Sequence record: KX009778
DNA from: Escherichia phage UFV-AREG1
Length of the DNA: 64,000 nucleotides
Strand: one strand, 5' to 3'
A program made the position numbers and the translations under genes. Every line of letters begins with the position of its first letter. Positions within the stretch are counted from its first letter, which is position 1. The notes under the pieces were generated by a model. The model made no database searches. It saw nothing but the letters and a program-made list of their open reading frames with translations, and had not been told where the DNA came from. Below are positions 15,334-20,109 of the stretch, piece after piece.

Positions 15334-15337
15334 CAAT

Positions 15338-15368
15338 GGGGACCGAAAGGTCCCCATATTTTTATTTA
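15338..15368. terminator. Bidirectional terminator after gene 54
   Basis: Hairpin ggggacc-gaaa-ggtcccc followed by T-run; A-rich on the other side. Confidence 0.6.
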
Positions 15369-15652
15369 CGGAATGAAATAAAAGCAGCAACTGAAGCAAC
15401 AGAGGTTTCTTCAATATAAACCTCAATTTTTACCGGAGCTTCTGACTCAAATTTACCTGTTACTACACCTTGGAAAATACTTTCAGTCTGTTCTGGCTTT
15501 GAAAAATTTTCAGAAGGAAAAATTCCAAACTTTTTATCGGTTCCGAAAATTTTAATAAATTCATCATAAACTGCTTCATTGAAAGCGTTATCAGCGGGAA
15601 TAACGCCTTCAACGACGAGTTCTTGACCTAAAAAGCGCAAAGAAGATTTCAT
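15362..15652 (-). CDS. Hypothetical protein, alt.-3-like
   Basis: 96-aa ORF with own early promoter. Confidence 0.55.
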   Translation of the reverse strand: MKSSLRFLGQELVVEGVIPADNAFNEAVYDEFIKIFGTDKKFGIFPSENFSKPEQTESIFQGVVTGKFESEAPVKIEVYIEETSVASVAAFISFRK

Positions 15653-15683: not shown

Positions 15684-15713
15684 ACTATAACACAATACGA
15701 GGGACTTGTAAAC
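15684..15713 (-). promoter_or_regulatory. Early sigma70-type promoter (GTTTACA-17-TATAGT)
   Basis: Minus-strand GTTTACA, 17-bp spacer, TATAGT upstream of ORF 15362..15652. Confidence 0.5.
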
Positions 15714-17770
15714 TACATTTTGAACTTTTTAGACATTCTGTTGATGTTAACCAAAGAAGCTAAGATTTGAGAAACTTCGCTTTCCTCTTCTTTTGATTCT
15801 TCTACAAGGAATTGATTAAATCCAGCCATTGGACGAACTTCACCAGTTTCCATCAGATGGTCGCCATCATATACTGATTCTTCTAATTGTTCAGAAGGAG
15901 GAACGATTGTACCTTCGATTAGATACTTATTATAAGCAGTTTCTTTCATCATGTACGTACTTACTTTATTAATCTTCAGTAAAATTCCACGTGGTAGAAT
16001 AACTTCAGCTTCTGATGGAAATCCTGATAAATGACCCGGAACGATAACTTTAACTCGTTCAGCTCCTTTAATTACCATACCTACATTAGTTTCAGCGTCT
16101 TCATTCGCATATGTAGAATGACTACCCATATGCATTAAATCTTCAGCATCAACTGAACCTTCTCCTTCACCAGAAAATACTGCTCCGGAATCATCTAAGG
16201 CCATATAATTTTTACCATATTCACCGAAGATATTTGGCTTGAGTGAAGTAGATACAAAGTTCTTGAAATAGAACATTTTATTTTCTATATTATGACGCAA
16301 AGTTTTAAAGGTAACTTCTTGCCCACGATAAAGAGTAGTTCCTGGAGGAAGAACTGAACCTTTAGAAAATGCAGAATCCAGCGTCTCAATATGTTTAATA
16401 GCTCGTTCCATATATTCTTCACGGGTAGAATCAGGTTTACCTAAAAGGAATGAGTTCATTTCAACATATGAATCTGCACAATAATCTTCAATTACATCAG
16501 ATTCAGCCTGAGTTAATCCTTTTGGAGTTACTTCAGTGCTTGCATATTCATATGCCTGAGCAGCAGATTCATCAATTAATTTATAAATTCCATTCATTAC
16601 AAATTGAATAATAGCTGTCTTTTCATCTGGTGTAGCTTTAGAACCTTTAACTAAATCATTGATAATTTTCTTAATAACATCAAAACTATTAGAAATATTA
16701 ATGTCAGCAAGATCGCTTAAAATTTTATCAGTTTTATAATCAAAGAATTCTTTATTCTTTAAATATTCTTGAGAACCTTGATATGTTATATCGCTCTGCA
16801 GCTTGATAGATGGATCGCGTAAACGTGCATGGGCCAATGCAATATGATTTCGGAAGCTTTCTAGTTCATAATCGCTAGATTTAAAACGAGAAGCACTTCT
16901 CATACCACCGATAGCTCCTTTGCTAAAGTTTGAACCAATCTGAATAACGCCAGAGTTCATTGATCCTTCTGCTTTATATACCGGAACTTTAGATTCAAAC
17001 TCTTGATATTTCTTAGCAGCGAAGCTATCACCCTGGAGTGAAGCGTCAACAGTAGAATATTGAGCTTGGGCTGCTAATCGACGACTGATTTTAGTTTTCT
17101 GAATAACAGCTTGATCCGTGCGCTTATCATTTTCTAAAGCAATAGAAGCAGCAACAGCAACAGCTTTAGGAACAGCATTACCTGTTTTAACGTCTACATA
17201 AACATCACCAACCTTTGATTCAACTTTTGTGAATAACTCGGTTGAAATAGGAGGTACACCTGGAATGTCTTCTAATTTGGCATTTTTACGGTAAACCATA
17301 ATATATGCGTACTTTTTATCATAATCCCAGATTTCCTTTAAAAGAACATATCGACCTGCTCCTTTAGTACGTACTAAACGGTCAGCAATAACTTGCATTT
17401 GCCGAGCAGCGCCATTTGTTTTACTTTTTAGTACGCGGAATAGGCATGCATCAATTTTATACTGTTTCATTGTTTGAAGAGCAGTATCAAAAACAGCATT
17501 AATGACGCCAATTGGATTTCCACCCAAGTTTTTAAGCTTAACTAATGATAGTTTCTCATTAACACCTATCATTACGATATGCATCATTTTGTCGCCTGGC
17601 TTAACGTTTTTATTCGTATCACCGCCAGAGGTGTATGTACAAAATCTAAATCCAGGAAGCACGCTTTCTTCACCTGCTTGAATAGCAAAAATTTGAGGTA
17701 TTTTATGCTTAGGATTTAAGTTAACAACCGGCGCCGAAGCGCCGTCAAATAATTCTGTAATAAGTTCCAT
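15713..17770 (-). CDS. Alt-family mono-ADP-ribosyltransferase paralogue (685 aa)
   Basis: N-terminus MELITELFD... homologous to adjacent alt; ART motifs YRGQ (Arg), FVSTSL (STS), EAEVILPRG (ExE). Confidence 0.85.
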   Translation of the reverse strand: MELITELFDGASAPVVNLNPKHKIPQIFAIQAGEESVLPGFRFCTYTSGGDTNKNVKPGDKMMHIVMIGVNEKLSLVKLKNLGGNPIGVINAVFDTALQTMKQYKIDACLFRVLKSKTNGAARQMQVIADRLVRTKGAGRYVLLKEIWDYDKKYAYIMVYRKNAKLEDIPGVPPISTELFTKVESKVGDVYVDVKTGNAVPKAVAVAASIALENDKRTDQAVIQKTKISRRLAAQAQYSTVDASLQGDSFAAKKYQEFESKVPVYKAEGSMNSGVIQIGSNFSKGAIGGMRSASRFKSSDYELESFRNHIALAHARLRDPSIKLQSDITYQGSQEYLKNKEFFDYKTDKILSDLADINISNSFDVIKKIINDLVKGSKATPDEKTAIIQFVMNGIYKLIDESAAQAYEYASTEVTPKGLTQAESDVIEDYCADSYVEMNSFLLGKPDSTREEYMERAIKHIETLDSAFSKGSVLPPGTTLYRGQEVTFKTLRHNIENKMFYFKNFVSTSLKPNIFGEYGKNYMALDDSGAVFSGEGEGSVDAEDLMHMGSHSTYANEDAETNVGMVIKGAERVKVIVPGHLSGFPSEAEVILPRGILLKINKVSTYMMKETAYNKYLIEGTIVPPSEQLEESVYDGDHLMETGEVRPMAGFNQFLVEESKEEESEVSQILASLVNINRMSKKFKM

Positions 17771-17773
17771 GAT

Positions 17774-19867
17774 TTATCCTTGAACGAACTTGTAAGGCAT
17801 GTTTGTAATATCTATGCAAGACGCAATAATTCCAAGAGATGATTCTACTTTCTGTTTAATATTTGATGAAACAAATGATGCAAAGTCAACTCTGTCTTCT
17901 ATTTCAATATCACCTGTCATTGCAACCAATTCACCAGTTTCCATTAAATGGTCTCCATCATAGATTACCGATTCGGTGAGCTCTTCCGTGGTCATAACTT
18001 CAGCTTGAATGAGTTTTGTATTATTAGATGTTGTTCCGTCATTATTAGAAGCATCGATTATTTTATTAACTTTGACCATCAATCCACGCGGTAGAATAAC
18101 TTCAGCTTCTGTTGCTATTCCGAGACTTCCTGGATATACAACATTAACTTTATGAGCTCCATCAATTGCCCATCCTATTTGAACTTTAACATATTCAGGA
18201 TTTTCTTTATACGCTCTTATTTCGTTTGGATTAATAGTTATTCCTTCTTCATTTTTATCAACTGTTAATTCATTGCGAGCTCCTGGTTCTAAAAGACCAA
18301 TACCAGCATGTGTGATTCCAAAACGTCCAAAAATGATAGGAGTTAAAGAAGTAGATACAAAATTTCTGAAGTAGAACACTTTATTTTTAACTAACGCTTC
18401 ATATATAGGAGCAGTCATACTTTGAGCACGATAAACTGTAATGCCTTCTGGTATACGGTCACCATTTTCAAAAGCTGAATCTAAGTTATTTATAGCAGAT
18501 TCAATTTCTTTTTCACTCATTACATCATATCGTTCTGGATTGTAACGACCTAAAAGAAGATTATTGATGTCAGTATATCCTGAACCGCAATATTCTCTAA
18601 TGCCACGCTTTTGTGATGGAGTATATTTAGAACCATCGCGGGCAATAGTAATATCAATCATTGGACCAGCACCAATTCCAGAAAAACTGTAAATCATTCG
18701 TTTGAGGAATTTAGTTTTTGCTGCGTTCCAGGAATTTTTAGTTATTTCTTCCCAGACTTCATCTGGTTGTCCTTTACGATTTTTATTATGATTAGCAAGC
18801 CATTTATCTTTATAATCTTCAAAGAATTGATTTACAGCTGCTGCGTATTTCTCTAAACATTTTATTGAAGTAGTTGGTTCATTTTTAATTGCATTAAAAA
18901 TTACTTCTTTAATTTTTTCTGAAACTTCACCGACTTGACTCATTGGAAAGAATTTATAATCATAGTGAAGTTCATCTGCCGTTCCTTCAGCAATAATTTT
19001 TGCTGCCTTTGTTTTAGAAGCTAATGAATTAATTCCAATTTTCATTTCTTCTGCTTCGGGAATTAAAGGTGCAGTAGCTGGTTTATTAAAATTAGCTGCT
19101 GTAGATTCATACTTCTGGAATAATTCACTTTCAAATCTAGAAGATTCCAATGACTGACTTTGTGCAATTGCTCTACGGGAAATTTTAACTTTAACGATTA
19201 CAGCTTGGTCAGAACGTTTATCATTTTCTTGCGCAATAGATGCTGCAATTGCTTCATTTTTAGTTACTTGAGCTCCAGTATCTTTATTGATATAAACATC
19301 ACCGACCTTCGATTCAACTTTAGTAAAGAGTTCAGTGCTAATTTCTGGAACTCCTGGAATGTCTTCTAGTGATACATTTTTGCGATGTATAAGAATATAT
19401 GCATACTTTTTATCATAATCCCAGAGTTCCTTAAGAAGGACGTATCTGCCACCTGAACGACTACGGATAAGTCTATCAGCAATAACTTGAATTTGTCGAG
19501 CTTGGCCAGCAGTTTTAGACTTAAGAATACGAAGCATACAAGCATCAATTTTATACTGACGCATTGTTTGCATTGCAACAGTAAAAACTGAATTGATATA
19601 ATTAATTGGGCTTGGCCCAAGACCTTTCAATTTAGCAATTGAACCTTTAGCAGTTAATGTAAAAGGAACAATATGCATCATTTTATCGCCCATCTTTAAA
19701 TCACGATTAGTATCACCTCCAGATGTATAGGTACATAAACGAAAGCCTGGTTGTTCAATTGCGTCATCGACATGAACTGAAAAAATTTGTGGTATCTTCT
19801 TCTTTGGATTTAAGTTTGTAATCGGAAGAGTAGTATCTTCGTCAAATAATTCTGTAATAAGTTCCAT
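17774..19867 (-). CDS. alt: Alt ADP-ribosyltransferase (packaged, injected ART; 697 aa)
   Basis: ART motifs YRAQ, FVSTSL, EAEVILPRG; adjacent to gene 30 as in T4; late promoter upstream. Confidence 0.85.
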   Translation of the reverse strand: MELITELFDEDTTLPITNLNPKKKIPQIFSVHVDDAIEQPGFRLCTYTSGGDTNRDLKMGDKMMHIVPFTLTAKGSIAKLKGLGPSPINYINSVFTVAMQTMRQYKIDACMLRILKSKTAGQARQIQVIADRLIRSRSGGRYVLLKELWDYDKKYAYILIHRKNVSLEDIPGVPEISTELFTKVESKVGDVYINKDTGAQVTKNEAIAASIAQENDKRSDQAVIVKVKISRRAIAQSQSLESSRFESELFQKYESTAANFNKPATAPLIPEAEEMKIGINSLASKTKAAKIIAEGTADELHYDYKFFPMSQVGEVSEKIKEVIFNAIKNEPTTSIKCLEKYAAAVNQFFEDYKDKWLANHNKNRKGQPDEVWEEITKNSWNAAKTKFLKRMIYSFSGIGAGPMIDITIARDGSKYTPSQKRGIREYCGSGYTDINNLLLGRYNPERYDVMSEKEIESAINNLDSAFENGDRIPEGITVYRAQSMTAPIYEALVKNKVFYFRNFVSTSLTPIIFGRFGITHAGIGLLEPGARNELTVDKNEEGITINPNEIRAYKENPEYVKVQIGWAIDGAHKVNVVYPGSLGIATEAEVILPRGLMVKVNKIIDASNNDGTTSNNTKLIQAEVMTTEELTESVIYDGDHLMETGELVAMTGDIEIEDRVDFASFVSSNIKQKVESSLGIIASCIDITNMPYKFVQG

Positions 19868-19890: not shown

Positions 19891-19898
19891 TATTTATA
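19891..19898 (-). promoter_or_regulatory. Late promoter TATAAATA upstream of alt
   Basis: Minus-strand TATAAATA about 23 nt before alt ATG; RBS gagagg. Confidence 0.5.
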
Positions 19899-19903
19899 AA
19901 ATT

Positions 19904-19921
19904 AAAGGCCCGAAGGCCTTT
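19904..19921 (-). terminator. Hairpin terminator downstream of the 61-aa ORF
   Basis: aaaggcc-cgaa-ggccttt. Confidence 0.45.
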
Positions 19922-19923
19922 AA

Positions 19924-20109
19924 TTAATAGAGAGCTAAAAGAGTACGATATACTTCAAACTTTGGACCTTTTTCATATGGATCAAATCTTTCCGTGAATT
20001 CATCATATGCTAGTTTATCTGGGAATTCAAGAATAACCTGCGATACCGCAGTGGAAACATCTCCACCTTCTTTTTGAGCCACGACAATTGTTTCTAAGTA
20101 AGCTTTCAT
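19924..20109 (-). CDS. Hypothetical small protein
   Basis: 61-aa ORF; start overlaps gene 30 stop (ATGA coupling). Confidence 0.5.
   Translation of the reverse strand: MKAYLETIVVAQKEGGDVSTAVSQVILEFPDKLAYDEFTERFDPYEKGPKFEVYRTLLALY

Follow-up and report, generated by a model that had tools for sequence, protein, structure and literature searches.

Tandem Alt-type ADP-ribosyltransferase genes in Escherichia phage UFV-AREG1 and their relation to the alt region of T4

Phage T4 has one alt gene next to two short open reading frames (ORFs), alt.-1 and alt.-2, which raises the question of what stands at that position in related phages, and whether it encodes a second working enzyme. In the 64,000-nucleotide stretch of Escherichia phage UFV-AREG1 analyzed here (sequence record KX009778; called the window below, meaning this whole stretch), the locus held two adjacent minus-strand genes for Alt-family ADP-ribosyltransferases (ARTs). 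The first gene (paralogue 1) is referred to as Alt and the second (paralogue 2, labelled alt.-2 in RB51) as Alt2. An earlier note, made from the letters of this DNA, had described the pair and suggested that an intact paralogue was retained where T4 has alt.-1 and alt.-2. The pair is real and, judging from its conserved features, probably functional, and we consider it quite probable that the two genes form a late operon of two packaged, gp21-processed and co-injected arginine-specific mono-ADP-ribosyltransferases.

Family membership, active site and predicted fold

As the earlier note had stated, the ORF list contained two tandem minus-strand ORFs, Alt (17774..19867, 697 aa) and Alt2 (15713..17770, 685 aa), separated by a gap of 3 nt and both starting with MELITELFD. 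The two proteins shared 42% identity end to end (BLASTP, E = 3e-161), unevenly spread over their length: 67.9% in the N-terminal module (N-module, aa 1-238; 19154..19867 in Alt, including the 6-residue propeptide MELITE, and 17057..17770 in Alt2, both on the minus strand), 23% over aa 239-415, 35.7% in the ART domain (aa 416-630) and 42% in the C-terminal tail. These values bore out the claimed identity of about two-thirds over the first ~240 residues, as well as the claim of C-terminal halves that had diverged (23-36% identity over aa 239-630) yet kept the R-S-E triad, the quoted motifs being present in both proteins (YRAQ / FVSTSL / EAEVILPRG in Alt, YRGQ / FVSTSL / EAEVILPRG in Alt2).

Membership of the Alt family, also proposed before, was supported by Pfam PF03496 (ADPrib_exo_Tox), for which Alt scored 125.1 bits and Alt2 73.6 bits at a gathering cut-off of 23.4. 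The matched ART domains covered aa 378-627 of Alt (17987..18736, minus strand) and aa 416-620 of Alt2 (15911..16525, minus strand). Both proteins also matched phrog_802 ('Alt-like RNA polymerase ADP-ribosyltransferase') over their full length (E = 6.5e-272 for Alt and 5.7e-256 for Alt2). PF26846 (Tevenvirinae_ADPRT) was recorded together with PF03496 for P0001, a cluster representative at 98% identity, and for every listed full-length relative, while three shorter family entries (P0009, P0010 and similar) had PF03496 alone. As far as sequence comparison can tell, both proteins have the full Alt-type architecture of N-module, helical middle region, ART domain and C-terminal tail.

The catalytic arginine, both serines of S-T-S and both glutamates of E-x-E (R482, S507, S509, E587 and E589 in Alt2; R480, S505-T-S507 and E587-A-E589 in Alt) were invariant when 17 diverse members of the family were aligned. 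An ExE rather than a QxE motif is consistent with arginine specificity. In T4 Alt, mutation of a glutamate of the ExE region (E577A) abolished activity (PMC11404850). The ExE glutamates of T4 Alt were E574 and E576 in the RefSeq translation (L001 5455-7503), a one-residue discrepancy from the numbering of that report, and the mutated residue is probably equivalent to an ExE glutamate numbered off by one.

An AlphaFold model of Alt2 (mean predicted local distance difference test, pLDDT, 71) was compared with known structures using Foldseek. The Vis toxin (4xzj) gave the top match (E = 1.9e-9); Certhrax, CDTa, C3, VIP2 and iota toxin ranked behind it, with E-values from 1.9e-9 to 1e-5, a probability of 1.00 and target-normalised template modeling (TM) scores of up to 0.71. 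The model accordingly places Alt2 within the ART fold. When the Alt2 sequence was searched against PDB chains, nothing was obtained at E <= 0.01, and there was no solved Alt structure to anchor the model.

Processing motifs and expression signals

About 40 copies of T4 Alt are found in the prohead core and are ejected with the DNA (PMC9026906), the protein being cited elsewhere as a virion product as well (PMC9697503). Mass spectrometry showed that gp21 trims T4 Alt at both ends, with the loss of 6 residues at ITE-6 and of 63 at LTE-619 (PMC5694885). Equivalents of both putative gp21 motifs were conserved in the window, namely ITE-6 and LTE-632 in Alt, and ITE-6 and LEE-631 in Alt2. The C-terminal propeptides predicted past these motifs would comprise aa 633-697 of Alt (17777..17971, minus strand; by homology to T4 Alt) and aa 632-685 of Alt2 (15716..15877, minus strand; by alignment), and both contain YDGDHLMETGE. 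In the 17-member alignment (Alt2 numbering), E631, Y634, D635, G636, D637, E641, G643 and E644 were invariant and S632 nearly so, which leaves a strongly conserved YDGDxLxETGE inside the part that would be removed. The earlier note had inferred that the shared N-module was the packaging and processing region. The ITE-6 site does lie within this module, but the second site is at the C-terminus (LTE-619 in T4, PMC5694885), so that the processing region should be placed at both ends of the protein and not in the N-module alone.

A profile search of the N-module against 1.84 billion representatives retrieved only 74 proteins, mostly of 600-712 aa, and the scanned proteins of about 560-790 aa had an ART domain behind the N-terminal module. 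Ten atypical or distant N-module proteins were also scanned, six of which were above the Pfam ART cut-off; one truncated protein matched the domain with a score below it. The distant proteins P0184 (541 aa), P0187 (1142 aa), P0182 and P0188 had no Pfam ART match, with ART-like motifs recognized by eye in P0182 and P0187. The ART-like stretch of P0187 was followed by about 600 additional residues, and P0184, which had no obvious R-S-E motif, may carry a different cargo. The idea of the N-module as a general delivery handle for varied cargo was not supported, given the small number of proteins and the association of the module with ART cargo.

The T4 late-promoter consensus TATAAATA was located at 19891..19898 (minus strand), 23 nt 5' of the Alt ATG, with a GAGAGGA ribosome-binding site in between, and the late promoter that the earlier note had placed before the pair was found again at the equivalent position in T4, the alt gene of which is a late gene (PMC9697503). 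A second TATAAATA octamer within the Alt coding region (18487-18494, minus strand) may be a chance match, as the number of octamers in the window equals expectation. Immediately upstream of the promoter, directly past the alt.1 stop, a hairpin with a 9-bp stem (TTAAAGGCC-TTCG-GGCCTTTAA) was followed by a T-run (19902..19923, minus strand). This element, which was read directly in the sequence and was absent from the consensus scan listing, is terminator-like and would divide the upstream early/middle unit from the alt late unit. T4 alt is preceded by the same hairpin and octamer at the equivalent place. Motif, hairpin and synteny in the ligase-alt-gene 54 context all match T4, which points to late expression of the pair from TATAAATA.

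A Shine-Dalgarno-like AGGA element for Alt2 was read within the last Alt codons (17777..17780, minus strand), the Alt stop TAA being at 17774-17776 and the Alt2 ATG at 17768-17770. No terminator-like element was found by the scan between the two genes, and in the simplest reading of this arrangement Alt and Alt2 would be co-transcribed and possibly translationally coupled.

The pair was flanked on its 5' side by the DNA ligase gene (gp30) and then a 61-aa alt.1 homologue (19924-20109, minus strand), which matched Pfam PF24647 ('Phage_blade', E = 6.8e-28) and overlapped the ligase stop codon by 4 nt. On the 3' side, a 96-aa alt.-3 homologue (DUF5498; 15362..15652, minus strand; identified from the ORF list and Pfam) was followed by the opposite-strand baseplate/tail genes 54, 48 and 29. 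An early-type promoter-like site (TTTACA-17-TATAGT with TG, 15712-15684) started at the Alt2 stop codon ahead of alt.-3, for which early expression may add to expression by late read-through. The alt late transcript probably ends at a bidirectional hairpin resembling a terminator, which lies between alt.-3 and gene 54 (15336..15357). A 4.9-kb segment around the pair was 99.1% identical to Escherichia phages vB_EcoM-UFV05/06/09-11 and matched 541 phage records in all, which by sequence identifies the window as a segment of a T4-like (Tequatrovirus) genome.

The deletion in T4 and the history of the pair

The T4 record (Alt, NP_049811) does contain the short ORFs alt.-1 (NP_049810) and alt.-2 (NP_049809) at the position of the second gene, as had been stated, and both aligned to Alt2 and not to Alt. 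A lack of relation between these ORFs and Alt, which the earlier note had named as a finding that would speak against its proposal, was looked for by alignment; instead, the T4 ORFs appeared as fragments of Alt2. T4 DNA was 96% identical to window positions 17799-17423, covering the first 348 nt of Alt2, and the families of alt.-1 and alt.-2 (phrog_23015 and phrog_15247) matched Alt2 with E = 2e-40 and 3e-38, respectively. A run of five A in the window (17607..17611, minus strand) is a run of four in T4, and this -1 frameshift is what divides the T4 remnant into alt.-1 and alt.-2. Each edge of the T4 deletion corresponds to a copy of the 9-bp direct repeat CTAAAAAGT in the window, the upstream one at 17423..17431 (left edge) and the downstream one at 15724..15732 (right edge), both on the minus strand. 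The 1,699 bp between the copies are absent from T4, which hence has neither the middle region nor the ART domain of Alt2. From these alignments, T4 alt.-1/alt.-2 is best described as the remnant of a once full-length Alt2, through a microhomology-flanked deletion and a frameshift.

The tandem arrangement was not special to this genome, a point on which the earlier note needs refinement. A full-length copy of the Alt2-specific DNA (15713-17050) occurred in 400 phage records at 90% identity or more (93-98%); T2 and RB51 are among these. The T4-type 1,699-bp deletion was present in 91 of the 501 matching phage records, T4 being one of them. With 400 intact records against 91 deleted ones, most of the genus has the pair, and T4 belongs to a minority with a derived state. 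The annotation "Alt-like RNA polymerase ADP-ribosyltransferase (x2)" is found in many records, and paralogy of Alt has been in print since 2006 (PMC1524935; also PMC13600099, 2026). The tandem pair is therefore already known and ordinary for the genus, and hundreds of records in GenBank and RefSeq annotate it. What the present analysis contributes are the precise edges of the T4 deletion, the frequencies of the genotypes, the finding that Alt2 keeps both gp21 motifs, a measure of how strong selection is, and the natural hybrids.

Over the non-shared part of Alt2 (residues 240-685), the ratio of nonsynonymous to synonymous substitution rates (dN/dS) between orthologues was 0.025-0.075 at dS 0.16-0.31, and Alt2 is under strong purifying selection. 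Between Alt and Alt2, synonymous sites were saturated throughout, including the N-module (dS 1.54, omega 0.18), and the longest exact DNA word common to both genes was 28 nt. Recent gene conversion as the source of the N-module similarity was ruled out on these two grounds. Together with the occurrence of divergent tandem pairs, the saturation indicates that the duplication is old and that the likeness of the N-modules has been held by selection on the protein.

Salmonella phage KM16 (MW325771.1, L006 2872-7124) carries such a pair (697 and 707 aa), with copies far more divergent (54-66% identity to the N-modules of the window), and a more divergent metagenomic relative also had a tandem pair in the same context. 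In these more distant Tevenvirinae, the Alt pairs of KM16 and of L008 (2242-6423) were flanked as in the window (ligase / alt.1 / DUF5498 / gene 54). In its ART domain, the second KM16 copy resembled Alt2 (48%) more than Alt (38%), and this suggests that the duplication predates the divergence of KM16 and window-type phages from one another. Among the Tequatrovirus-like genomes compared, the ART domain of each copy was nearest to the copy at the same position, Alt being 60-64% identical to T4 Alt and to the first copy of L008, and Alt2 74% identical to the second copy of L008.

Alt itself was a mosaic relative to T4 Alt, with identities of 99.6% over aa 1-238, 33% over aa 239-415, 65% in the ART domain and 95% in the tail. 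Synonymous sites were saturated in the center (17987-19150) and the flanks were nearly identical, a pattern indicating that a different catalytic allele has recombined between the conserved flanks of Alt. The allele of the window was the commoner one, found in 337 records including T2.

Several relatives carried, between alt.1 and alt.-3, a single chimeric gene made of the 5' part of Alt and the rest of Alt2. In phage ECML-134 (JX128259.1, complete isolate genome; L005 1742-3802) the crossover was at nt 465-475, right after 22 nt of identity; in a Logan contig (L003 5001-7055) it was at nt 546-558, and in an ENA k99 contig (L004 4001-6061) at nt 150-159. These hybrids are best explained by unequal crossover between the two N-modules, and the ECML-134 gene shows that the Alt2 catalytic half works behind the Alt N-module in a viable phage, the tandem pair as such being dispensable. 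Assembly artefacts are an unlikely source of the hybrids, as ECML-134 is a complete isolate genome, one of the others was assembled at k=99 and each of the three has its own crossover point.

Function of the second copy and comparison with known systems

In the explanation that we favor, both genes would be transcribed late from TATAAATA 5' of alt, with Alt2, which has no promoter of its own, lying 3 nt past the alt stop behind its AGGA element. Alt and Alt2 would both enter the prohead core, where the gp21 prohead protease would cut each of them after ITE-6 and after an LxE motif about 55-65 residues from the C-terminus. The processed proteins would stay in the DNA-filled head, pass into the next host with the DNA, and there ADP-ribosylate arginines of host proteins in an NAD+-dependent reaction at the R / S-T-S / E-x-E site. 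What the two proteins have in common are the N-module and the terminal propeptides; the helical middle region and the ART-domain loops set them apart. Most likely, this pattern means that Alt and Alt2 modify different, or just partly overlapping, sets of host proteins, the middle region and the ART loops being the likely determinants of substrate choice.

Several observations weigh against this explanation. The TATAAATA octamer was not enriched in the window (10 matches, 9.8 expected), so that the call of a late promoter draws on position and conservation only. The L/I-x-E motif is short and occurs elsewhere in both proteins, and its conservation alone is therefore no proof of cleavage. The full-length model of Alt2 is of moderate confidence (mean pLDDT 71), the literature searched yielded neither functional nor proteomic work on the second copy (virion presence, cleavage or activity), and Alt2 is dispensable in some lineages, as the 91 records with the deletion show.

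Dispensability in these 91 records, along with a Pfam ART score below that of Alt and the description of Alt as both enzyme and core protein (PMC11404850, discussion), would also suit a structural paralogue, packaged as a head-core component, that lost or never had useful enzymatic activity. We regard this as very improbable in view of the catalytic residues, which are invariant across the family, of the low dN/dS (about 0.03-0.08), which was obtained over precisely the non-shared catalytic part, of the predicted fold, which matches active toxins, and of ECML-134, the sole Alt gene of which bears the Alt2 catalytic half. Hardly any more credence, and if anything slightly less, is given to Alt2 as an active enzyme that is not injected and acts late in the producing cell like the non-packaged ModA and ModB of T4. 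Alt2 keeps the MELITE propeptide, the whole N-module, the C-terminal site (LxE followed by S) and the conserved C-terminal propeptide, parts linked, in T4 Alt, to uptake into the prohead and to trimming by gp21 (PMC5694885); it also appears to be co-transcribed with alt from the late promoter and adjoins baseplate genes.

It is rather unlikely that Alt and Alt2 are redundant dosage copies with the same targets, for example Arg265 of RNA polymerase alpha. Their common ExE (arginine-type) active site and their identical expression and packaging signals would fit such copies, as would the observation that either Alt2 (in the T4-type deletion) or the Alt catalytic half (in the hybrids) can be lost. 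Redundancy sits poorly, however, with identities of just 23% in the middle region and 36% in the ART domain, with a loop before ExE and a long insert after STS that differ in sequence and length, and with separate purifying selection on each copy. The saturated synonymous sites indicate copies long kept apart, and the closer match of each ART domain to the copy at the same position in other genomes, the second copy of KM16 included, argues in the same direction. All three of these alternatives are made less likely by the unvarying catalytic residues, by purifying selection on the catalytic half, by the propeptides that Alt2 has kept and by a divergence maintained over a long time.

Within the favored explanation of two co-injected enzymes, a more specific proposal can be made tentatively and with less than even confidence. 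Alt2 might be a second injected effector with its own target set, not RNA polymerase but for example a component of a defence or toxin-antitoxin system, as MazF is for Alt; the N-module might serve both as a packaging and ejection handle and as a recombination site for swapping or collapsing catalytic cassettes. Because T4 carries the Alt2 deletion, such an effector would have escaped decades of work on T4.

Roughly four in five sequenced Tequatrovirus records, T2 included, encode a second, strongly conserved Alt-type enzyme that is absent from T4. Since most relatives carry Alt2 and T4 does not, conclusions drawn from T4 on "the" injected ART may not hold for most of its relatives. T2 or RB51 would be ready systems for asking what the second enzyme modifies, and the mapped T4 deletion and the hybrids joining the Alt N-module to the Alt2 catalytic half provide clean natural genotypes for comparison.

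T4 has the same gene order as the window (ligase gp30 - alt.1 - alt - ... - alt.-3 - gene 54), and T4 Alt has the same R/STS/ExE residues, gp21 motifs, late promoter, hairpin and position. The N-module of T4 Alt was 99.6% identical to that of Alt and 68% identical to that of Alt2, and past the N-module Alt2 was only 10-39% identical to T4 Alt. The T4 record calls alt.-1/alt.-2 "a duplication of the first part of alt", whereas the present data point to the remnant of a full-length paralogue; the 'alt.-2' of RB51 (ACP31114) is an intact 685-aa Alt2 orthologue.

The ModA and ModB enzymes of T4 are small early proteins of about 200 aa without N-module or propeptides, and by their descriptions alone they are set apart from Alt and Alt2. 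They are phage R-S-E ARTs of the broad Alt/VIP2 clade and are not injected from the head (PMC5512222). The bacterial R-S-E toxins (C3, VIP2, iota, CDTa, Vis and Certhrax) have the catalytic fold, the motif set and Pfam PF03496 in common with the phage enzymes, at a sequence identity of just 13-20%. In the phage enzymes this catalytic domain is combined with an N-module specific to Tevenvirinae, a helical middle region and propeptides that a protease removes, whereas the bacterial toxins have translocation/binding components instead.

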